From Elusimicrobiota bacterium (GTDB lineage Bacteria > Elusimicrobiota > UBA8919): a stretch of DNA of 34,525 nucleotides. A program made the position numbers and the translations under genes. Where the stretch lies: NCBI GenBank assembly GCA_003452965.1, contig DMMW01000010.1, positions 1 to 34,525 of the forward strand, given 5' to 3'. Shown piece by piece: positions 2,288 to 29,455 of this stretch. The first letter of the stretch is position 1; the number at the start of each line of letters is the position of its first letter. Below the pieces are notes generated by a model, which worked only from the letters and a program-made list of their open reading frames with translations, ran no database searches and was not told the DNA's origin.

Positions 2288-3175
2288 CTACCTCTTTACC
2301 TTTGTCGCTAATGTTTTATATAATTCTAACGCTTCTTGTGGTTTCATGTTTTTATGCACAACATTATTTACTGCTTTTATCATTGCAATAGGATTTTCGC
2401 TTTGGAATATGTTTCTGCCCATATCCACACCCGACGCACCCTGCTGTACGGCACTATATGCCATTGTAAGTGCATCCAACACTGGCAGTTTTTTACCGCC
2501 TGCCATAACAATGGGAACAGGACATGATGCCGTTATAGTTTCAAAATCTTCTGGAACATAATATGTTTTTACTACATGTGCACCCAATTCTGCACATATA
2601 CGGCATGCAAGCCGAAAATATTTAGCATCCCTTACCATATCCTTGCCTACTGCGGTTACTGCTAAAACAGGTATTCCATAACGCATTCCCATATCAACCA
2701 ACTTGGTCATATTATGTATTGACCGTGTCTCAAATTCACCTCCGATAAATACCTGTATTGCCATAGCTGATACATTCATTCTGATAGCATCTTCAATATC
2801 AACAGCTATTTCTTCATTTGAAAGTTCTTTTAAGATGCTTGGTCCACCGCTTGTTCTCATAACTATAGGTGTTGTAAACGACGGAGGTATAGTAGTTCTC
2901 AAGATTCCGCGGGTCAACATAATTGCATCTGCATATTTTACAAGCGGAACAATATTTAAATCAATCCGTTCCAATCCGGTTGTAGGTCCCTGAAAATAGC
3001 CATGATCTATTGCCAGCATGACCGTGCGTCCAGTATCGCTGTTGAATATTCTTGACAGGCGGTTTTTCATACCCCAATCTAAAGAATTAGACCCTTTAAG
3101 AAAAAAACATTCCGATTTCATTGGAATATCTTCATAATATTTTTTTTCTTCTTTATTTGCGTCTGTTTCCGGCAT
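2288..3175 (-). CDS. DhnA-type class I aldolase (archaeal-type fructose-bisphosphate aldolase / ADH-synthase / LsrF family, DeoC-LacD superfamily).
   Basis: [17 protein letters not shown]... family signature. Start trimmed from the six-frame ORF (which begins at 3382) to ATG 3175, which has the SD GGAGGAG 4-5 nt upstream. The longer ORF would overlap the divergent cupin gene and its promoter. Confidence 0.75.
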
Positions 3176-3259
3176 AACTCCTCCCTGGAAATTTATTAAT
3201 TTTAATAACCTCATTATATATAAAAAATATTTTATTTTCAATAAAAATTTAAAAACCTC

Positions 3260-3287
3260 TTGCAAATTATCAATGTTTAGATACAAT
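3260..3287 (+). promoter_or_regulatory. Sigma70-like promoter TTGCAA-16 nt-TACAAT for the cupin-esterase transcription unit. Contains the 15-mer TGTTTAGATACAATA, which recurs at 4776-4790.
   Basis: Read directly: -35 at 3260-3265, -10 at 3282-3287, about 27 nt before the cupin ATG. Confidence 0.45.
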
Positions 3288-3313
3288 AATAGAAAATAAT
3301 ATTGGGAGATTTT

Positions 3314-3628
3314 ATGCCTATAATCTCGGGAAAGAATGCTGTGCAAAATACCGGTGAGTTCCCGGCATGGGGATTGGTTCACTTCAAAGCAGGACAGAAA
3401 AACATAACAGAATTACATTATCACGATAGTGACGAATTTTTCTTTATGATTGAAGGAAGATGTGTGATGAAATCGGAAGGGAAAATATATACTCTTGAAA
3501 AAGGCGATGTTTTTGTTACTCGCATGGGTGACGAACACGAACTTTTTGAGATATTGGAAGATACGACACTTTTTTGGCTATGCACAGAACTTCGCGGTCA
3601 AAAAAGGCAAGGACACCAGCACAGGTAA
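3314..3628 (+). CDS. Cupin-domain protein (cupin_2 fold).
   Basis: Two-His/Glu cupin motifs ([14 protein letters not shown] ... [13 protein letters not shown]). Start moved from 3302 to ATG 3314, which has GGGAGA upstream. Confidence 0.7.
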
Positions 3629-3654
3629 AAATGGATAAAGATTGGAGGAATGAT

Positions 3655-4617
3655 ATGTCATTAATATTTGGGATGTCTTTGAGAAAACTAAAAGAATATA
3701 AGGGCAGAAATCCGCGTCCTAAAGATTTCGATAAGTTTTGGGAAAGAGGTCTTTCTGAAATGAATTCAATAGCTCCAAAAATAAAAATAGTTCCTGCAAA
3801 GTTTCAGGTACCTTTTTGCAAGTGTTTGCATCTGTACTTTACTGGTGTAGGCGGAGCGCGTGTTCACGCAAAAGTTTTGCGTCCCAAAAAACCGGCTAAA
3901 AAACATCCTGCAATATTGATGTTTCACGGATATTCCTGCAGCAGCGGAGATTGGTACAACAAGCTTGCCTACGCAGCTTTGGGCTATACCGTTGCTTATT
4001 TAGATTGCCGCGGACAGGGTGGTTTATCCGAAGATAAAGGTGGGGTTACCGGCTGGACACTACACGGGCATATTGTTCGCGGATTAAGCGATTCGCCGGA
4101 AAAACTGTTATTCAGGAATATATTTCTTGATGTGGCCCAGATTGCCAAAATAGTAATGGAAATGTCCGACGTGGATGAAAACCGCGTTGGCGCCATAGGC
4201 GGCAGCATGGGCGGGGCACTTTCGTTAGTTTGCGCCGCATTGGAGCCGAGAATCAGAAGAGTTGCGCCTAATTATCCGTTTCTTTGCGATTATAAAGGTG
4301 TATGTGAAATGGATGTGACTAAAACAGCTTATGCGGAATTTCACGATTATTTCAGGAAATTTGATCCGTTACATGAAAGGGAAGAAGAGTTTTTTAACAA
4401 ACTTGGCTATATAGATGTTCAGCATTTTTGCAGCAGGATAAAAGCGGAGGTATTGATGGGTACCGGCTTGATGGATACCGATTGTCCGCCGTTCAGTCAG
4501 TTTGCCGCATACAATAAAATTAAGTCAAAAAAAACATTAGAAATATATCCGGATTTTGCGCATGAGGATTTTCCATATCATAACGATAAAATCTTCCAGT
4601 TTATGAGCAATCTATGA
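3655..4617 (+). CDS. CE7 acetyl-xylan esterase / cephalosporin-C deacetylase family (AXE1).
   Basis: Aligns along its whole length with B. subtilis Cah: N-term ...PKDFDKFW..., HGY, GGSMGG nucleophile (GxSxG), and C-terminal H of the triad (FAHED). Start set at ATG 3655 with SD GGAGG 6 nt upstream. An in-frame ATG at 3631 is a possible alternative. Confidence 0.85.
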   Translation: MSLIFGMSLRKLKEYKGRNPRPKDFDKFWERGLSEMNSIAPKIKIVPAKFQVPFCKCLHLYFTGVGGARVHAKVLRPKKPAKKHPAILMFHGYSCSSGDWYNKLAYAALGYTVAYLDCRGQGGLSEDKGGVTGWTLHGHIVRGLSDSPEKLLFRNIFLDVAQIAKIVMEMSDVDENRVGAIGGSMGGALSLVCAALEPRIRRVAPNYPFLCDYKGVCEMDVTKTAYAEFHDYFRKFDPLHEREEEFFNKLGYIDVQHFCSRIKAEVLMGTGLMDTDCPPFSQFAAYNKIKSKKTLEIYPDFAHEDFPYHNDKIFQFMSNL

Positions 4618-4639
4618 TTAGGACAATGTAAAGGAAGTT

Positions 4640-4740
4640 ATGAAAATAGGCTTCATTGGATTAGATAAAATATATAGATGAAAAAATGGTTGCATTGGAA
4701 AATAAATGCAATCCCAAAAAGGTTACTCCATATTTTGTTT
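4640..4740 (+). pseudogene. Degraded duplicate of the first ~110 bp of the YchF-like gene at 5614. It keeps its own RBS and ATG, and an in-frame stop follows after 13 codons.
   Basis: Read directly: atgaaaataggcttcattgga...gcattggaaaataaatgcaatcccaaaaaggttactccatattttgt aligns with 5614-5725, with a 15-bp deletion and a few substitutions. Confidence 0.6.
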
Positions 4741-4843
4741 AATAAAATCTCTTTAAAAAAATTAGTGTTTAGATACAATATTTATGAGGATTCTTGTAAT
4801 AAAAACTTTGTATGCTTGAAAAGGTGATATTTTTGTTGCCCGT

Positions 4844-5617
4844 TTGGAGGATAACATAAATAAATATGAATTTGGGTTTTTAGGTGCAAAATTCCGGGTT
4901 CACAAAGACTGGAAACATTTTTTTGAAAATATATGCCTGGAATGTATAGAGAAGAATATTAGAAGAGATAAAATTACACCTTCTAAAGAAAATATTTTCA
5001 AAGTTTTTGAGAAACTCGGTCCTAAAGATATTAAAGTAGTAATAATCGGGCAGGACCCATATCCGCAACCAAATATTGCAACAGGCCGCGCATTTGAAGT
5101 TAAAGAATTGAATTCATGGCTTATTCCATTCAGGCAAGCAACATTAAGAAACATTTTGAAAATGTTGTATAACTGGCATGACAGTAAGAAGAATAAAAAA
5201 GCTTCAAGATTAGAAAAAATTGAAATTATAAAAAACGCAATAGAAAAGAAAGATTATAATATATTGCCGCCGGATAAGGTATTTGATTATTGGGAAAAAC
5301 AAAAAATATTTTTATTGAATTTTGCATTGACATACAGGATGGGTAATTGTGATAGTGGGGATTCTCATTTAATGTATTGGAAAGATTTTAATTATAAATT
5401 GGTAAGATGTTTATCAAAAATAAATAAAAATATAGTATGGTTGTTATTCGGAAAAGTTAACGAAGAAAATAACTGGATTATTAAACAAAATGCTTTTTAT
5501 ATTGCCCATCCGTCTGACAGGAGGGGAATAAACCCTAAGGATTTAGAAAAAATACGTCAATTTTTCGATATTTCGGTTAAGAAACATAAAATAGATTGGC
5601 TCGGAGGAAATTTATGA
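4844..5617 (+). CDS. ung: Divergent family-1-like uracil-DNA glycosylase (UNG-type).
   Basis: VVIIGQDPYPQ (GQDPY catalytic Asp motif), LLNFALTYR, LLFGK, and HPSDRRG matching the HPSPLS His motif. There is no in-frame ATG near the 5' end. The only start is TTG 4844, and the first ~6 codons derive from a cupin-gene fragment. Confidence 0.6.
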   Translation: MEDNINKYEFGFLGAKFRVHKDWKHFFENICLECIEKNIRRDKITPSKENIFKVFEKLGPKDIKVVIIGQDPYPQPNIATGRAFEVKELNSWLIPFRQATLRNILKMLYNWHDSKKNKKASRLEKIEIIKNAIEKKDYNILPPDKVFDYWEKQKIFLLNFALTYRMGNCDSGDSHLMYWKDFNYKLVRCLSKINKNIVWLLFGKVNEENNWIIKQNAFYIAHPSDRRGINPKDLEKIRQFFDISVKKHKIDWLGGNL

Positions 5618-6303
5618 AGATAGGTTTTATCGGGATAGAAATACCTGAGGGTAAGATAAAATACAAAGATGAAAAATTTGTCGCATTGGAAAATAAATGC
5701 GAACCTAAAAAAATAACTCCATATTTTGTAGAATTCATTATTAATGAATTCGTTCAGGTAAACGCTATTGTTATTTCAAAAGATAAAATACTTGATTTGC
5801 TTATTCCCGATATTGAAAAACTTGAAGCACGTGTGCAGAATACAAATGATAATTTTGAAAAAGAATTAATAAAAAAATGTATATCTTGTCTTGAAAATGA
5901 AATGCCTTTATGTGACATCGTTTTTAACGAACAGGAACAGAAACTTCTTCAGATGCTGTCACCGAATAGCATGAAACCGATTGTAATTATTGATGACAAA
6001 GTTGAAACAAACGAAATAATTGAAAAAGTATTAAAAAAATCACAAACTATATTTTTTTATACAGCGGGAAAAGATGAGGTTCATGCCTGGCCTGTAAAAG
6101 CAGGTTCCGATATTGTGACCTGTGCGGGCAGGATACATTCCGATTTAGCACGCGGATTTATAAAAGCGGATATTGTAAGTTTTGACAATTTTATGAAATG
6201 CCATAATTTTAATGATGCCAAGACAAAAGGATTGGTAAAGCTAGTAGATAGGGAATATATTATCCAAGAATCAGATATTATAGAGATACGCTTCAATGTA
6301 TAA
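5614..6303 (+). CDS. YchF/Obg-family-like protein that keeps the C-terminal TGS/DUF933 domain but lacks a functional GTPase G domain: its P-loop is degenerate (GIEIPEGKIK instead of GxPNVGKST) and about 130 aa of G domain are missing.
   Basis: C-terminal 90 aa align closely with E. coli YchF (FYTAGKDEVHAWPVKAGSDIVTCAGRIHSDLARGFIKADIVSFDNF...IIQESDIIEIRFNV). Start set at ATG 5614, with SD GGAGGA 5 nt upstream. Overlaps the ung stop. Confidence 0.65.
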   Translation: MKIGFIGIEIPEGKIKYKDEKFVALENKCEPKKITPYFVEFIINEFVQVNAIVISKDKILDLLIPDIEKLEARVQNTNDNFEKELIKKCISCLENEMPLCDIVFNEQEQKLLQMLSPNSMKPIVIIDDKVETNEIIEKVLKKSQTIFFYTAGKDEVHAWPVKAGSDIVTCAGRIHSDLARGFIKADIVSFDNFMKCHNFNDAKTKGLVKLVDREYIIQESDIIEIRFNV

Positions 6304-6390
6304 ACAAAAAGCATAGAATTGAGAGATATTAAAATAAGAATCTTGGAATAGATTATTTCATCAAAATAAATAAAATGGTGTAATTTAAAA

Positions 6391-6630
6391 ATGAAGATTT
6401 TGTATCGTGATGTTAAAAAATATTGTGTGTTGACGAATAGAGAAGTGGAAGTCTTGCAGAAACTTATTCATAATACATTACCCAACGGGAATGAAGAAAT
6501 AATTCCTGTTCAGAAAATAAAATGTCCATATGCTATCAAGTGTTTCTATGAAGCGAGAGATTGCATTTACACTGAAAGCAATATCAATTCTAAAAATGAT
6601 CCCTTAATATTCAAAAATGAAGAGAAGTAA
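6391..6630 (+). CDS. Small hypothetical Cys-containing protein (79 aa).
   Basis: ORF only. No strong RBS. Overlaps the next gene by 14 nt, which suggests coupling. No family recognised. Confidence 0.3.
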   Translation: MKILYRDVKKYCVLTNREVEVLQKLIHNTLPNGNEEIIPVQKIKCPYAIKCFYEARDCIYTESNINSKNDPLIFKNEEK

Positions 6631-7714
6631 ATTGGAACTTAAATATAAACCGGATTTTGATTATGCAAAAGAAATGTGGAATCATTATTGGGCAAAAGAA
6701 GTATTGAAACGTCCGCTTGTGGTTGCCAATGTAGTTAAACAAGAAGGAAAAACTGTTGATAAAGATAAGTATAAGTATTATAATGCATGTACGAAGAATT
6801 ATAGAGAACAACTGACGATAATTGATGAATGGTTGGATAATACGTTATTTCTTGCTGAATCAATTCCGTGTTTTTCTCCAAGTCACGGTCCTGACCAGTT
6901 TGCTGCAATGCTCGGTGCTGATTTAAAATTTTCAGAAAGTAGCAAAACTACGAATTGGGTAGAACCTATAGTAGAAAATTGGGAAGAATTTATCCCGAAG
7001 ATTAAATTAAATGAAAATAATTCCGTCTGGCAAAGTCTTCTGGAATATTCAAAGATTCTTAAAGAACATTCAAAGGGGAAATATCTCGTTGGGATTTGCG
7101 ATTTTTATTCAAATGCCGATATGTTAAGTGCGATTCGGTCTCCGGCTAAATTGTGTATGGATTTTTATGATTATCCCGAATCAATAGCAAAGGCAATGTT
7201 ATCAGTCAGAAAATTATATAAAACGGTATATAATTCTTTATATGAAGCAGGCGGAATGAACAACGAAACCGGTACTATAGGGTGGATTCCTTTTTGGTGT
7301 AAAGATAAATATGCAACGATTCAATGTGATTTTATATGTATGGTATCACCGAAAATTGCAAATGAATATATAATTCCGGCATTAGAGGAAGAGGCGAATT
7401 TTCTTGACCATTGCATCTATCATCTTGACGGTCCCGGAGCATTACCACATCTTGATAATATTCTTGCAATAAAAAAAATTGATGCAATTCAGTGGATACC
7501 CGGTGATGGGCAGCCGCCGCAGTATGAATGGATTGATGTTCTGAAAAAATGCCAGAAAGCTGGTAAGGGACTTCAGATTTTGGATGTCACAAGCATAGAT
7601 ATTATAAAAAAATTCAGCAAAGAACTCAGTCCGGAAGGACTGGTATACTGCATAGACGTAAAGACTGAAAGAGAAGTTGATGAAATAACGACATGGCTTG
7701 AAAAAAACACTTGA
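6617..7714 (+). CDS. Putative URO-D-like (uroporphyrinogen decarboxylase / MtaA-CmuA-like methyltransferase fold) protein.
   Basis: 365 aa. His/Cys cluster DHCIYHLDGPG...IQWIPGDG, and overall length and pattern reminiscent of the URO-D-like superfamily. The assignment comes from recollection of motifs, not an alignment. Confidence 0.4.
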   Translation: MKRSKLELKYKPDFDYAKEMWNHYWAKEVLKRPLVVANVVKQEGKTVDKDKYKYYNACTKNYREQLTIIDEWLDNTLFLAESIPCFSPSHGPDQFAAMLGADLKFSESSKTTNWVEPIVENWEEFIPKIKLNENNSVWQSLLEYSKILKEHSKGKYLVGICDFYSNADMLSAIRSPAKLCMDFYDYPESIAKAMLSVRKLYKTVYNSLYEAGGMNNETGTIGWIPFWCKDKYATIQCDFICMVSPKIANEYIIPALEEEANFLDHCIYHLDGPGALPHLDNILAIKKIDAIQWIPGDGQPPQYEWIDVLKKCQKAGKGLQILDVTSIDIIKKFSKELSPEGLVYCIDVKTEREVDEITTWLEKNT

Positions 7715-7927
7715 AGCTCCATCCCGATAACAATCGGGATTATAACATTTACCATAAGATTTTAAGGAGCGGAATCCGGCCCGTCAAGGCTTCGGCCTTG
7801 GCTGGCTGCAGGATGAAGCTCCATCCCGATAACAATCGGGATTATAACATTTACCATAAGATTTTAAGGAGCGGAATCCGGCCCGTCAAGGCTTCGGCCT
7901 TGGCTGGCTGCAGGATGAAGCTCCATT
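7714..7927. repeat. 102-bp tandem direct repeat (2 full copies + 10 bp), GC-rich. Each unit carries two perfect hairpins: ATCCCGAT-aaca-ATCGGGAT, and CAAGGC-TTCG-GCCTTG with a UUCG-type tetraloop.
   Basis: Read directly: 7714-7815 = 7816-7917, identical. The six-frame 'ORF' 7711..7968 is just this repeat translated. Diverged partial copies of the unit occur at 16358-16415, and a shared ATCCGGCCCG core occurs at 95-104. Confidence 0.9.
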
Positions 7928-12013: not shown

Positions 12014-13417
12014 GTGTTTAGAAAATATTTTCCGAAAGAAATAAAAATAAAACAAAGAGTTTTTGAACAGAGTATTCTAATAGCAAGTATCGTAAAATGG
12101 ACTTTATTGGCGATAATAATAGGAACTGTTGTAGGATTTTCTACCGGACTATTTTTATTTTCTTTGGATATTACAATTAGTTTTTTTAATAGATTTAATT
12201 ATTATTTTTTTATTTTACCAATAATTATTTTACTTATTGCCATAACAATAAGGAATATTTCTCCTGAATCGGAGGGACATGGCACAGAAAAAGTTATAGA
12301 ATCTATTCATAAAACACACGGACAAATTTCTTGGAAGGTTATACCCATCAAAGCCATAACTTCGATTCTTACTATTACTTTCGGAGGTTCGGTAGGTAAG
12401 GAAGGCCCTTGCGCACAGATAGGGGGTGGAATAGCTTCTTTATTCTCAAACATTTTAAAATTTCATCCAATTGACCGTAAAAAACTTGTAATTTGTGGAA
12501 TAAGTGCCGGTTTTGCTGCCGTTTTTGGAACTCCTATTGCTGGTGCGCTTTTCGGTGTTGAGGTTTTGTTCATAGGACAGATTTTTTATGAAGTATTATA
12601 TCCGTCTTTCATTGCTGGAATTGTGGGTTTTCAAACCTGCAGATTATTCGGTATAACATATTTCACACATCCGATAAATCTTGTCCCTAAATTTACTGAT
12701 TTATTTTTATTAAAAGTAGTTGCTTTTTCAATTCTTATTGGTTTGGTTGCATATTTATTCATTGAGACATTAAATTTCACCCATAAAAAGTTCAAAAAGA
12801 TTCCTTATAAAAAGAGAGCTATATTAGGTGGTTTATTAGTTGTATTTATTGTACAGGTTACTTCTCGGAGATATCTTGGACTTGGATTGGATACTATAGC
12901 GCAAGCTATCAATGGTGAACATATACCTAAACTTGCTTTTTTGTGGAAGACAATAGTAACATCTATTACATTGTCATGTGGCGGTAGTGGTGGGATTGTG
13001 ACTCCTATTTTTTACGTAGGTGCTGCAAGCGGGAACTTGTTTGCAAGGATATTTAATTTTGATTTAGGTACATTTTCAGCAATTGGTATGACATCTCTTC
13101 TTGCTGCCTGCACAAATACACCAATTGCCTCATCAGTTATGGCGATAGAGTTATTTGGACCCAAAGTGGGTATTTATTCTGCGATTTGTTCAATTATTAG
13201 TTTTACTATAGTTGGCTACAGGTCTGTATATCCAAGCCAAATATTAGGTGTTCTAAAAAGCCAGAGTTTCAAGGTGGAATTAAATAAAGAAATTAAGGAT
13301 GTAGAAAGCACGGAACAATTCAAGATGTTTTCACAACGAAATACATTAACACATATTATAATATCAATATATTTAAAGATAAAAAAATGTAGATTATTCA
13401 TGAAAAAAAAGAAATGA
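12014..13417 (+). CDS. ClC-family voltage-gated chloride channel / H+-Cl- antiporter.
   Basis: GSVGKEGP and GFAAVFGTPIAGALFGVE selectivity-filter motifs. Many TM segments. GTG start with AAGGA upstream. Its stop overlaps the ATG of the otsB 5' duplicate (ATGA). Confidence 0.8.
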   Translation: MFRKYFPKEIKIKQRVFEQSILIASIVKWTLLAIIIGTVVGFSTGLFLFSLDITISFFNRFNYYFFILPIIILLIAITIRNISPESEGHGTEKVIESIHKTHGQISWKVIPIKAITSILTITFGGSVGKEGPCAQIGGGIASLFSNILKFHPIDRKKLVICGISAGFAAVFGTPIAGALFGVEVLFIGQIFYEVLYPSFIAGIVGFQTCRLFGITYFTHPINLVPKFTDLFLLKVVAFSILIGLVAYLFIETLNFTHKKFKKIPYKKRAILGGLLVVFIVQVTSRRYLGLGLDTIAQAINGEHIPKLAFLWKTIVTSITLSCGGSGGIVTPIFYVGAASGNLFARIFNFDLGTFSAIGMTSLLAACTNTPIASSVMAIELFGPKVGIYSAICSIISFTIVGYRSVYPSQILGVLKSQSFKVELNKEIKDVESTEQFKMFSQRNTLTHIIISIYLKIKKCRLFMKKKK

Positions 13418-13479
13418 AATATTTTTTTAAAGAATTAGGAAAAATAAAAGGGTACAAAATATTAAGAAAATTATGAAAA
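13414..13479 (+). pseudogene. Duplicated 5' end of otsB (first ~14 codons, then diverged and closed by a stop).
   Basis: 13414-13451 is identical to 13703-13740 (ATGAAATATTTTTTTAAAGAATTAGGAAAAATAAA). Similarity continues with a 12-nt deletion. Confidence 0.6.
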
Positions 13480-13507
13480 ATCATGGTTTTTCACTAGACG
13501 CGATATT

Positions 13508-13531
13508 TTCATCAAGGCATGCCTTGATGAA
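13508..13531. promoter_or_regulatory. 24-bp perfect palindrome TTCATCAAGGCA|TGCCTTGATGAA inside the ~225-bp insert between the otsB 5' duplicate and otsB. Candidate dimeric-regulator operator or hairpin.
   Basis: Read directly and checked base by base. Confidence 0.5.
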
Positions 13532-13702
13532 CGGCTCAAAAAACACTAAAATTTCAAAACTCACTTGCTATGCTCGTTCAGACAGTTGAAATTTTTTAAC
13601 GGTTTTTTATCGCCTAAATATCGCTATATCGTTCAAAACCAGATTTTTCGATAATGTAATTATTCTTGAAAGATGTGAATTATTTTTTAAAAAAAATAAA
13701 AA

Positions 13703-14473
13703 ATGAAATATTTTTTTAAAGAATTAGGAAAAATAAAGAAAAAAATAAAAGGATATAAAATATTACTCTGCCTGGATTATGATGGTACTCTAACCCCCAT
13801 AGTTAAAAAGCCAGAATATGCCAAACTCGGGCAAAACATTAAGCATGCTTTAGAAAACATTAAAAGTAATAAAAATATTATATTGGCTATAATATCAGGC
13901 AGGACTTTATCAGGAATAAAAAAATTAGTCAATCTTAGAAATGTTATTTATGCAGGCAATCACGGTTTTGAAATAGAGATAGGCAGGGATGTTTTTATCC
14001 ATCGGGGACTCAAGGAAGCTATTCCGATAATCAGCAAAATAAAAAAAGCGATAAGTAAAAAAATAAAAGGAATACGGGGTGCATTTATTGAGGATAAAGA
14101 ATTTACATTAAGCATTCATTGGCGGTTGGTCAAAAAAAAATATTTAAATAAGTTGTTTCTAATAATTAAAAATATTATACATAATAATAGTAAAATAAGA
14201 TTAACCATAGGTAAAAAGGTATGGGAAATCAGGCCTAATATTGCTTGGGATAAGGGTAAAGCCGTTGAATTAATATATTCAAAAGTAAATAAAAATAATA
14301 ATTTAAAAATCATATATATAGGTGATGATACAACTGATGAAGATGCTTTCTCGGTATTGAAAAAAGAAATAACAATAAAAATCGGTAAATCAAATAAGTC
14401 AAAAGCAAAATATTATTTAAAAAAACAATCAGAAATAAAAAATATTCTCAATTTATTGAGTAATATAGGCTGA
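13703..14473 (+). CDS. otsB: Trehalose-6-phosphate phosphatase (HAD superfamily, OtsB).
   Basis: HAD motif I LDYDGTL. Motifs III/IV KG...IYIGDDTTDEDAF. 256 aa. Confidence 0.85.
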   Translation: MKYFFKELGKIKKKIKGYKILLCLDYDGTLTPIVKKPEYAKLGQNIKHALENIKSNKNIILAIISGRTLSGIKKLVNLRNVIYAGNHGFEIEIGRDVFIHRGLKEAIPIISKIKKAISKKIKGIRGAFIEDKEFTLSIHWRLVKKKYLNKLFLIIKNIIHNNSKIRLTIGKKVWEIRPNIAWDKGKAVELIYSKVNKNNNLKIIYIGDDTTDEDAFSVLKKEITIKIGKSNKSKAKYYLKKQSEIKNILNLLSNIG

Positions 14474-27960: not shown

Positions 27961-29436
27961 ATGAAAAAGTATAAAATATTCGTGAGTGGTGTGCAGAAAG
28001 AACTCAAAGCAGAACGCCGGGCAGTGAAAGATTCGATTCTCGGTGATGTCTTGCTCTCCGAGTATTTTGACGTTTTCTTGTTTGAAGATTCACCGGCTAA
28101 AAGCCATTCAGCAGAAAAGGCATATCTTGAAGAAGTCCGTAAAGGCAATATCTATATCAGCATTCTTGGCGATAAATACGGCAGCACGGGCAAGAATAAA
28201 ATTTCTCCTACCGAAGCAGAATTTCGGGAAGCAAAAACCAAGCATAAAGACATTTTAATTTATATAAAAGGTGAAAACTCCGTTGATAAAAACCGTGAAG
28301 CAGGCGTACAGAAACTTATTAAGGAGATTAAAGATTCCAAGGTGGGTTATTGTTATCGCAGATTTAATTCCATCAGCGAATTAACCAACCTTGTTTATGA
28401 AAGTTTGATTGTCTTTTTAAAAGAGAAAGGAGAAGTCGGCAGAGCCGTATTTGACCAGCGGATATGCGACAGTGCGACTTTCTCCGATATTGACGATGAA
28501 AAAGTTAAGTGGTTTTTAAAAACAGCACGAGCCAAACGGAATTTTCCACTTGCTCTTGATTCTTCAACACAAGATGTTTTTACTCATCTAAAACTTTTGA
28601 AAGACGGCAAATTGACCAACGCCGCAGTTTTATTATTCGGCAAAGAACCGAGAAAGTTTTTTGACCAGGCAAAAATCAAATGTATTCATCTGCCAAGTAC
28701 CGAAGTAGAGAAACCGTTCACATCATATCAAATTTACGAAGGGAATTTATTTGAGCAGGTGGACAAGGCAGTTAGTTTTGTATTTGATATACTCAAATTC
28801 CCTGTTATTCAGCAGGAACATACTGTCCAGGTATCTCGGCCCCGTGAAATTCCAGTATTCGTGGTTCAGGAAGCCATCGTCAACGCAGTTGCTCACCGCG
28901 ACTATAACACGACGTCCTCTGTTCAGGTAATGGTATTTCTTGACCGAGTGGAAATATGGAATTCTGGGACTTTACCAGCCCACTTAAAAATAGAAGACCT
29001 CAAAAAACCACACGCATCTCACCCGACAAATACTTTATTAGCCACAGTAATGTTTTTTGCCGATTACATTCAACAAGCAGGTTCGGGAACATTGGAGATG
29101 CTCAAACAGTGTAAGGCAAAGGGACTTCCCGAGCCGGACTTCGTATCAGTGCGGAATCTTGAATTCAAAACAATATTAGCCAGAGATATTTTTACGGAAG
29201 AGGTCTTAAATAAACTGGGATTGAATGAACGCCAGTTAAAAGCAGTAAAATATGTAAAAGAAAAAGGCAGAATAACGAATAAAGAATATCAGTTAAATTT
29301 TGGTGTTAAGAAAAGACAAGCAACAGATGATTTAAAAGATTTAGAAAATAAAGAGGTCTTAATTAAGATTGGATCTACTGGAAGGGGAACATATTACAAG
29401 GTTAATGGGGCGATAATGGGGCGAAAGGGGCAATAA
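27961..29436 (+). CDS. DUF4062 - AlbA_2/Schlafen-like - HATPase_c_4-like (RecG-C-terminal-like) three-domain protein. Candidate defence or regulatory protein.
   Basis: N-terminus KIFVSGVQKELKAERRAV...YLEEVRKGNIYISILGDKYGS fits the DUF4062 pattern (xFxSS..L..ER......P..FE......YG). Middle region KVKWFLKTARAKRNFPLALD...AAVLLFGKEP is Schlafen/AlbA_2-like. C-terminal region AIVNAVAHRDY...IWNSGTLP...QAGSGTLEM matches the HATPase_c_4 family. Domain assignments come from memory of the family consensus. Confidence 0.65.
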   Translation: MKKYKIFVSGVQKELKAERRAVKDSILGDVLLSEYFDVFLFEDSPAKSHSAEKAYLEEVRKGNIYISILGDKYGSTGKNKISPTEAEFREAKTKHKDILIYIKGENSVDKNREAGVQKLIKEIKDSKVGYCYRRFNSISELTNLVYESLIVFLKEKGEVGRAVFDQRICDSATFSDIDDEKVKWFLKTARAKRNFPLALDSSTQDVFTHLKLLKDGKLTNAAVLLFGKEPRKFFDQAKIKCIHLPSTEVEKPFTSYQIYEGNLFEQVDKAVSFVFDILKFPVIQQEHTVQVSRPREIPVFVVQEAIVNAVAHRDYNTTSSVQVMVFLDRVEIWNSGTLPAHLKIEDLKKPHASHPTNTLLATVMFFADYIQQAGSGTLEMLKQCKAKGLPEPDFVSVRNLEFKTILARDIFTEEVLNKLGLNERQLKAVKYVKEKGRITNKEYQLNFGVKKRQATDDLKDLENKEVLIKIGSTGRGTYYKVNGAIMGRKGQ

Positions 29437-29455
29437 AGGGGCGATAATGGGGCAG
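29404..29455 (+). repeat. Five evenly spaced GGGG tracts (loops 7, 5, 7, 7 nt) inside a degenerate ~11-bp tandem repeat (TAATGGGGCGA)x5. Canonical G-quadruplex-forming motif on the coding strand, spanning the last 11 codons and stop of the DUF4062 gene.
   Basis: Read directly: GGGG at 29407, 29418, 29427, 29438 and 29449. Confidence 0.7.

Follow-up and report, generated by a model that had tools for sequence, protein, structure and literature searches.

Decayed copies of a ychF-like gene start, a promoter and a cupin segment before an ung gene of an Elusimicrobia bacterium: probable scar of an old tandem-type duplication

We analysed a 34,525-nucleotide (nt) stretch of DNA (contig DMMW01000010.1, hereafter the window) from the genome of Elusimicrobia bacterium RIFOXYC2_FULL_34_12, of Rifle groundwater, and describe here the spacer that separates an AXE1-family esterase gene from a UDG-superfamily gene (ung). 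Within this spacer, decayed copies of three local sequences stand side by side: the start of the ychF-like gene that follows UDG, the promoter core upstream of the cupin gene that precedes AXE1, and an internal segment of the cupin gene itself. The explanation that we favour, with modest confidence, is a single old segmental duplication of tandem type, which took in the promoter-proximal part of the operon and was followed by reciprocal gene loss; the spacer would be its decayed scar. The region is composed as follows:

4618-4639, plus strand: 22 nt 3' of the AXE1 stop, with a Shine-Dalgarno-like AAAGGAAG before the ATG of the ychF-like fragment; no source assigned
4640-4743, plus strand: ychF-like pseudogene fragment (ychF', the ychF ghost), from the ATG to codon ~40; source 5614-5733 (~118-120 nt)
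4740-4744: novel junction, where ychF homology runs out (...CCATATTTTGTT) and promoter homology sets in (ATAAAATCTCTT...); junction string CCATATTTTGTTTAATAAAATCTCTTT
4744-4780, plus strand: P2, second copy of the promoter core; TTTAAA 4752-4757, 16-nt spacer, TACAAT 4774-4779
4781-4802, plus strand: filler (TTTATGAGGATT...), with no significant match to the 5' part of the cupin gene or elsewhere in the window
4803-4842, plus strand: cupin-like ghost; source cupin 3482-3522, residues ~57-70, with a 1-nt deletion
4843-4858, plus strand: UDG's own leader, TTTGGAGGATAAC then ATA

Repeats were scored by Smith-Waterman alignment against 300 dinucleotide shuffles, in a window-wide search on both strands. 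When the window was compared with itself, as a preliminary description of this sequence had proposed, the three pieces proved to be the best off-diagonal matches of the spacer, each 17–24% diverged from its source. The ychF-like duplication, which that description had placed at 4640-4740, was confirmed at 4640-4743 with a score of 56, against a shuffle maximum of 26. Its first part (4640-4658) corresponds to 5614-5632 and its second (4658-4743) matches 5649-5734 with 83% identity over 86 ungapped nt (blastn E=1e-18); the two are split by a 17-nt deletion after 4658, which leads to a frameshift and a TGA stop at 4679-4681. The first seven codons of the ghost show only three differences from all other sequences, all synonymous. 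Selection on the ghost was considered and rejected, as the 11 changes per 100 nt that are specific to the ghost, of which 7 are non-synonymous in the former frame, are compatible with neutral decay within these small counts.

The second piece, P2, copies a promoter-like core upstream of the cupin gene (P1), which stands in a divergent intergenic region with the following features:

3241-3213, minus strand: leftward DeoC promoter, TTGAAA-17-TATAAT, just outside the duplicated part
3252-3288, plus strand: P1, rightward promoter-like core upstream of the cupin gene; TTGCAA 3260-3265, 16-nt spacer, TACAAT 3282-3287
3289-3313, plus strand: native leader and Shine-Dalgarno sequence, now before the cupin gene and orthologous to the leader before the UDG ATG of the closest relative (below)

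P2 and P1 are 81% identical over 37 nt, with a match score of 23 that none of the 300 shuffles reached window-wide. The repeat is thus longer than the 15-mer first reported; the cupin-side position of that 15-mer (3274-3288) was correct, but the spacer copy of the exact match, TGTTTAGATACAATA, lies at 4766-4780, 10 nt away from the 4776-4790 originally given. These 15 identical positions comprise the -10 hexamer and nine flanking bases (eight upstream, one downstream), whereas the remaining 22 nt are 68% identical, suggesting constraint on P2. Ten of the 15 bases, TGTTTAGATA, are also conserved in the promoter of the closest relative. We examined TGTTTAGATA as a dispersed motif and rejected it (five matches at ≤2 mismatches in the window versus 2.55 expected, and only two exact copies). 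The P2 hexamers match the sigma-70 consensus at 9 of 12 positions with 16-nt spacing, such matches being no commoner in this AT-rich region than in shuffles, and P2 is predicted to be probably still a working promoter. Its left edge (=3252) falls between the divergent DeoC and rightward promoters, so that the copy holds one complete rightward promoter and none of the DeoC promoter. No terminator was predicted between AXE1 and UDG, and read-through from P1 into UDG-ychF is therefore also possible.

The third piece, the cupin-like ghost, is the weakest of the three repeats; it is real but only moderately significant. Positions 4803-4847 match 3482-3527 with 74% identity over 46 nt and one 1-nt gap, and the core (4819-4842 against 3499-3522) is identical at 20 of 24 positions. 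No shuffle in 300 reached this score against a target of promoter plus cupin, and 1–6 in 300 did so window-wide. The ghost scores 20 against the window's own AT-rich cupin gene and 8–14 against cupin homologues from other genomes. The similarity noted in the preliminary description therefore stands, but its in-frame reading (EKGD...) does not: positions 4817-4819 are a TGA stop in the UDG frame, which hence reads *KGDIFVARLEDN.

How are the pieces arranged? All three are co-oriented, in the order expected after a tandem join (ychF 1-118, then promoter, then cupin), and P2 (4744-4780) followed by the cupin piece (4803-4842) is collinear with P1 (3252-3288) followed by the cupin source (3482-3522). 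Their similar decay (17–24%) is consistent with a single age. At the junction, ychF nt ~118 (4739-4743) is joined head-to-tail, on the same strand, to promoter homology from 4744 (=3252), beginning 8 nt upstream of the promoter -35; at most 1–2 nt (T/A) of microhomology can be shared at 4740-4744, as read after ~18% decay. Illegitimate recombination is the only process able to create such a non-native junction between ychF codon ~40 and a promoter, and this origin, suggested earlier, is supported by the junction together with the patchwork of decayed local copies. The spacer is not an assembly artefact, since 4600-4900 is base-identical in 17 independently assembled contigs (ENA, JGI, NCBI, Logan).

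Other sources for the spacer were tried and rejected. The 22 nt after AXE1 (4618-4639) were compared by eye with the start of typA, which follows AXE1 in the closest relative, and the two starts (ATGAAAAATACTAAG / ATGAAAAATATTAAAAGC) are not convincingly similar; as a remnant of the UDG 3' end, the same 22 nt align locally no better than shuffles. For the filler at 4781-4802 as a remnant of the cupin start, 1848 of 2000 shuffles score equally well. A structured regulatory RNA (riboswitch or leader) in the spacer was ruled out: Rfam gave no match at E≤1 across 3000-6500, and the spacer fold is not unusually stable (minimum free energy -45.2 kcal/mol against -41.2±4.4 for shuffles, z = -0.91).

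The closest relative in the searched databases, RIFOXYD2_FULL_34_15 (the sister hereafter; ychF-like protein 84% identical, synonymous divergence (dS) about 0.9–1.7), provides a comparison for the whole locus, which in the window reads:

2288-3175, minus strand: DeoC-type aldolase gene
between the DeoC and cupin genes: divergent intergenic region, 138 nt
3314-3628, plus strand: Cupin_2 gene (Pfam), 104 amino acids, without counterpart at the sister locus
3655-4617, plus strand: acetyl-xylan-esterase family gene AXE1 (Pfam)
4618-4843: AXE1-UDG spacer, 226 nt
4844-5617, plus strand: UDG-superfamily gene, a divergent family-1 UNG, TTG start called at 4844
5614-6303, plus strand: gene for a DUF933 protein of 229 amino acids (ychF-like), the C-terminal half of YchF without the P-loop

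The sister has the same SDR-aldolase-DeoC cluster, followed by an intergenic region identical at 117 of 138 positions to the DeoC-cupin region of the window, and the match runs the full length, leader and Shine-Dalgarno sequence included. This region leads directly into UDG and then ychF, which overlap by GTGA (ATGA in the window), and the sister's DeoC-UDG locus contains no cupin gene, no esterase gene and no ghosts. The two species therefore differ by a block of ~1.5 kb (cupin, AXE1, ychF', P2 and filler) between the native leader and UDG, and UDG-ychF under the divergent DeoC promoter is, as judged from synteny, common to both genomes. Because UDG-ychF stands under the shared promoter in the sister without cupin or esterase, ung is read as resident and the cupin and esterase genes as new at this position. 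Hence the comparison with relatives, which the preliminary description had advised, returned a differing block of cupin, AXE1 and ghosts rather than an ung insertion, and leaves its proposed link to ung acquisition unsupported, as the sister carries UDG-ychF under the orthologous promoter.

The two newcomers have different records elsewhere. In the sister, an AXE1 ortholog (81% amino-acid identity) is found at another place, ~8 kb further along, where a TPR gene and typA flank it, and AXE1 resembles neighbouring genes in both non-synonymous divergence (dN) and dS (1.48). A foreign origin of AXE1 by GC content was rejected, the sister AXE1 having the same GC (0.40); that of UDG and ychF is low in both species (0.30/0.31 in the window, 0.28/0.32 in the sister). 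The contexts of AXE1 in 16 metagenome loci show no shared neighbours and no upstream cupin gene. No cupin-AXE1 pair was found outside the window among the searched homologue contexts, and no cupin counterpart at the sister-species loci; the closest cupin homologues (75–79%) lie in cupin-GFO_IDH_MocA-URO-D clusters of GC-rich genomes, where their leaders are GC-rich and unrelated to the window's cupin leader. More distant relatives (~70% identical) carry ychF alone, beside other genes. Of 80 DeoC loci retrieved, one is the sister's own, and the other 79, which come from other phyla, lack neighbouring cupin, AXE1, UDG and ychF genes. As far as this synteny goes, the arrangement is specific to the two species and otherwise uninformative on polarity.

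Does the cupin fragment supply the start of UDG, as first suggested? This seems doubtful. The 13 nt before the start position read TTTGGAGGATAAC in the window and TTTGGGGATAATT in the sister, where they precede ATG in the same Shine-Dalgarno register, and an in-frame TTG stands 12 nt upstream of the start position in both (the cupin leader also has a TTG, at 3302). The TTG at 4844 thus belongs to the leader of UDG itself, and no contribution from the cupin fragment is needed to explain it. The sister UDG opens ATG-GAA-TAT-TAT-AAA-TTT, and counting back from the conserved TTTTTAGGT identifies ATA at 4856-4858 as the counterpart of its ATG, with GGAGG (4846-4850) 5 nt before it. TTG 4844 is the only canonical in-frame start and overlaps this Shine-Dalgarno GGAGG. 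The window UDG may be weakly translated or started at a non-canonical codon, its ATG having changed to ATA. Positions 4843-4855 resemble the cupin and the sister leader about equally (~65%), and may be a deletion joint. The sister UDG ortholog has 253 amino acids and is 76–77% identical to that of the window; its dN/dS between the two species (0.145) is the highest of seven genes, a value that indicates purifying selection on UDG.

Some observations on these genes may be recorded here. An out-of-frame ATG at 4866 opens a 5-codon open reading frame (ORF). The UDG-like protein has its best PDB match in 3wdf (E=1e-15) and a weak Pfam match; it carries GQDPYP in place of the motif GQDPYH, keeps HPS, and has a ~35-residue insertion relative to solved UNGs. 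DUF933 homologues number >1000, nearly all exactly 229 amino acids long, 55–60% identical and from many phyla, with the N-terminus MKIGFIG.... Two outgroup loci (L025 and L134) share a ychF context, with a divergent radical-SAM gene upstream and an NMO-family gene and a DEAD-box helicase gene downstream.

When did the duplication occur? Among 100 aligned positions of the ghost, 10–11 changes are found in the ghost only, 7 in the window ychF only, and 7 separate the sister from both. The ghost differs by 18% from the window ychF and likewise by 18% from the sister ychF, and these two differ from each other by 15% over the same 100 nt. Four derived sites, polarised by the sister and four outgroups, are common to the ghost and the window ychF. 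Within the promoter core, P2 agrees with P1 against the sister at 5 sites (changes on the sister branch or the stem) and with the sister against P1 at 2 (changes of P1 only), and it stands alone at 5. Taken together, these patterns would date the duplication to about the split of the two species and, most simply, place it on the window's branch with the sister arrangement ancestral. The derived state is absent from the closest relative, and its polarity rests on that one relative and the site patterns.

What events could have produced the spacer? Under the duplication that we favour, an illegitimate head-to-tail join between ychF codon ~40 and a site that precedes the -35 of the rightward promoter by 8 nt would first have created the arrangement P1-genes-ychF' followed by P2-genes-ychF. 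Redundant genes would then have been lost reciprocally, the upstream copy retaining cupin, then AXE1, and the downstream copy retaining UDG-ychF with its cupin gene reduced to a ~40-nt scrap. Left between AXE1 and UDG would be the frameshifted 5' fragment of ychF, the junction, P2, the cupin scrap and the Shine-Dalgarno leader of UDG. Functionally, cupin and AXE1 would have been interposed between the original promoter and UDG-ychF, with P2 keeping a promoter directly ahead of the latter. We infer the full second copy, the order of these events and the activity of P2 from what remains.

Several findings weigh against this reconstruction: (i) the search for remnants of a second AXE1 and of a first UDG copy found none (4618-4639 and 4781-4802 match neither), so that the model needs at least three clean deletions; (ii) DNA homology between the window and sister AXE1 covers only the Shine-Dalgarno sequence and the ORF (3644-4607), and the cupin ORF begins exactly at the ATG position of the native leader, neither of which is predicted by a simple duplication and deletion; (iii) in the -35 of P2 the G of TTG is gone, and shuffles of the region yield consensus promoter matches at least as often; (iv) the four sites shared by the ghost and the window ychF lie within 15 nt and are possibly one gene-conversion tract; and (v) a single close relative was available in the searched databases and the site patterns are almost star-like, which leaves the timing relative to the species split, hence the polarity, not firmly fixed.

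Tandem-duplication join points made by illegitimate or microhomology recombination are classical in Salmonella, E. coli and Acinetobacter. Like them, the spacer joins the end of a segment, head-to-tail, onto the beginning of that segment, with copies in direct orientation and the junction inside a gene beside a promoter; a further parallel is that duplication can provide a promoter arrangement into which newly arrived genes fit. PMC11111574 reports an experimental demonstration of tandem duplication by microhomology-mediated illegitimate recombination that puts promoters before newly arrived genes, and PMC9997567 gives further experimental examples of bacterial join points; horizontally acquired genes can be activated or accommodated by such duplications. 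Unlike laboratory duplications, which are young, identical and unstable, the scar in the window is about as old as the species split, with its ghost ~18% diverged, and it has been cut to ~230 nt and fixed, its redundant genes gone and a promoter copy retained. Gene remnants and pseudogene fragments in bacterial spacers are described for Rickettsia among others (PMC2374718, PMC522871). As in those accounts, the relics in the window are short, frameshifted and non-coding and record a past gene order; unlike the remnants described there, mostly of lost genes, they copy genes that are intact 1–1.5 kb away and flank a rearrangement junction.

Alternatively, cupin-AXE1-UDG-ychF may already have been contiguous, and one error-prone repair or replication event with serial template switches could have copied three local templates (ychF 1-118, the promoter core and cupin codons ~57-70) into a pre-existing AXE1-UDG spacer, with no large second copy. 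Templated insertions of this kind (microhomology-mediated break-induced replication, MMBIR, or fork stalling and template switching, FoSTeS) are known mainly from eukaryotes. They share with the spacer a patchwork of short local copies at one breakpoint, and such a patch would account for the shortness of the pieces (40–118 nt), for templates that all lie within 1.5 kb of the spacer, for second AXE1 and UDG copies that leave no trace, and for filler that can be assigned to no source. However, all three pieces share one orientation and follow the order of a tandem second copy, which random jumps would give, by our own estimate, in ~1 of 8 to 48 cases, and the P2 boundary neatly takes in a whole promoter. 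To our knowledge, multi-jump templated insertions of such size are not well documented in bacteria, which also counts against a patch of this kind, and we regard it as unlikely.

A second possibility follows the polarity of the preliminary description: P-cupin-AXE1-ychF would be ancestral, a promoter-bearing UDG segment would have been inserted into the 5' end of ychF with duplication of a ~118-nt target, and the sister would later have lost cupin-AXE1-ychF' by homologous recombination between the direct repeats P1 and P2. Deletion between direct repeats is easy, and the nearly star-like sites would allow a duplication slightly older than the species split; 5' ghost, insert and intact gene also follow one another at a second locus in the window (13403-13464 against 13691-13765). 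Yet the four polarised sites and the promoter-core counts put the ghost on the window's branch, the sister leader matches the P1 leader over its full length without the 62-nt filler of the P2 leader, and UDG and ychF share low GC and an overlapping stop and start in both species. In addition, the sister AXE1 ortholog, at another locus and with ordinary divergence (dS 1.48), would need a separate explanation, and P2 must in any case be a copy of P1. We consider this order of events quite improbable.

The ghost and P2 could also derive from a third close lineage, through an illegitimate exchange between cupin-AXE1-ychF and P-UDG-ychF alleles, for example after natural transformation or Campbell-type integration of a circular fragment. 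The equal distance of the ghost from both ychF genes and the purely synonymous differences of its first seven codons would suit such an exchange. These counts are small, however, the collections searched yielded neither such a third lineage nor a cupin-AXE1-ychF allele, and the cupin scrap downstream of P2 would be left unexplained; this origin strikes us as a long shot.

The second locus deserves description in its own right. Within 13393-13765, positions 13403-13464 repeat the start of a HAD/OtsB-like gene at 13703 (MKYFFKELGKIK...GYKIL); relative to 13691-13765, this younger ghost is 96% identical over 47 nt and 92% over 25 nt, with a 12-nt deletion, and it shares an ATGA overlap with the stop of the CLC gene upstream. 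The stretch of ~225 nt that separates it from the real start (13466-13690) has no other copy in the window and no Rfam match, and includes a perfect palindrome, CATCAAGGCA/TGCCTTGATG, at 13508-13531. Both ghosts consist of a gene-start region placed just after an upstream stop and followed by inserted DNA and the intact gene. Insertion-duplication yields such products: a Campbell-type single crossover of circular DNA with a 5' gene fragment leaves a copy of that fragment, the cargo and the intact gene. The layout ychF'-(P2...UDG)-ychF is of this form, as is that of the second ghost (13403-13765), but no circular donor, vector or integrase is evident and the cargo in the window opens with a copy of a local promoter. 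Both ghosts might conceivably be footprints of a specific insertion mechanism, recurrent in this Elusimicrobia lineage, that duplicates 60–120 nt of gene 5' ends, an idea to which we give little credence. If true, such a mechanism, for example the capture of circular DNA by Campbell-type recombination over short homology, would slot genes or promoters before existing genes without disrupting them, and the ychF ghost may then have been retained for a function, such as a 13-codon upstream ORF or the spacing of P2.

Insertion of the cupin-AXE1 block as a transposon, insertion sequence or integron cassette was rejected. The block is filled by cupin, AXE1 and the 226-nt spacer, with no room for a transposase or integrase; the sole inverted pair near its ends (3303-3324 / 4577-4598, 77% over 22 nt) belongs to a group of 57 comparable pairs, all AT-rich; and the flanking repeats are 37–118-nt copies of local genes, with no short target-site duplication. 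Finally, it is hardly credible that there was no duplication at all, with the 15-mer a reused regulatory motif (as the conservation of TGTTTAGATA in P1, P2 and the sister promoter, expected of a binding site, might suggest), the cupin stretch a chance match (1–6 of 300 shuffles window-wide) and only the ychF ghost true, or with the whole an assembly chimera, given that the promoter similarity spans 37 nt and directly abuts the end of the ghost, that the motif is not enriched in the window, that the cupin piece sits downstream of P2 where a cupin copy is expected (0 of 300 shuffles against that target), that the spacer has no Rfam family and an RNA fold at z = -0.9, and that 17 independent assemblies agree.

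Other repeats and rearrangements were seen in the window. At 7712-7926, between a 365-codon ORF and a lactate dehydrogenase gene, a 102-nt unit is repeated perfectly in tandem (2.1 copies, 100% identity), which shows that recent tandem duplication takes place in this genome; with the second gene-start ghost it indicates that such events recur here. A heptamer microsatellite, (CAGGATA)x21, at 2094-2243 takes up the interval from the class II aldolase gene to DeoC, an interval of only ~20 nt in the sister, and an 11-nt repeat array (TAATGGGGCGA, ~4.8 copies) occupies 29403-29453, near the end of an ORF at 29436. Between ychF and an orf79-like gene the sister has a ~6-kb block that is absent in the window (L019 6991-13415 against window 6303-6391) and includes an ECF sigma factor, DUF3106 and an IS200-type Y1 transposase, and the window's 365-codon ORF (6617-7714) is absent from the sister at that position. 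Judging from these comparisons, the two genomes differ by many small rearrangements.

The tandem-type duplication with reciprocal gene loss that we favour would make the spacer an ordinary rearrangement scar, unusually legible, and no new kind of element or mechanism. Its join point can still be read although the window and the sister have diverged by about one synonymous substitution per site. The locus would thus offer a natural example of operon remodelling, in which new genes come to stand behind an existing promoter while the old genes keep a duplicate of it.

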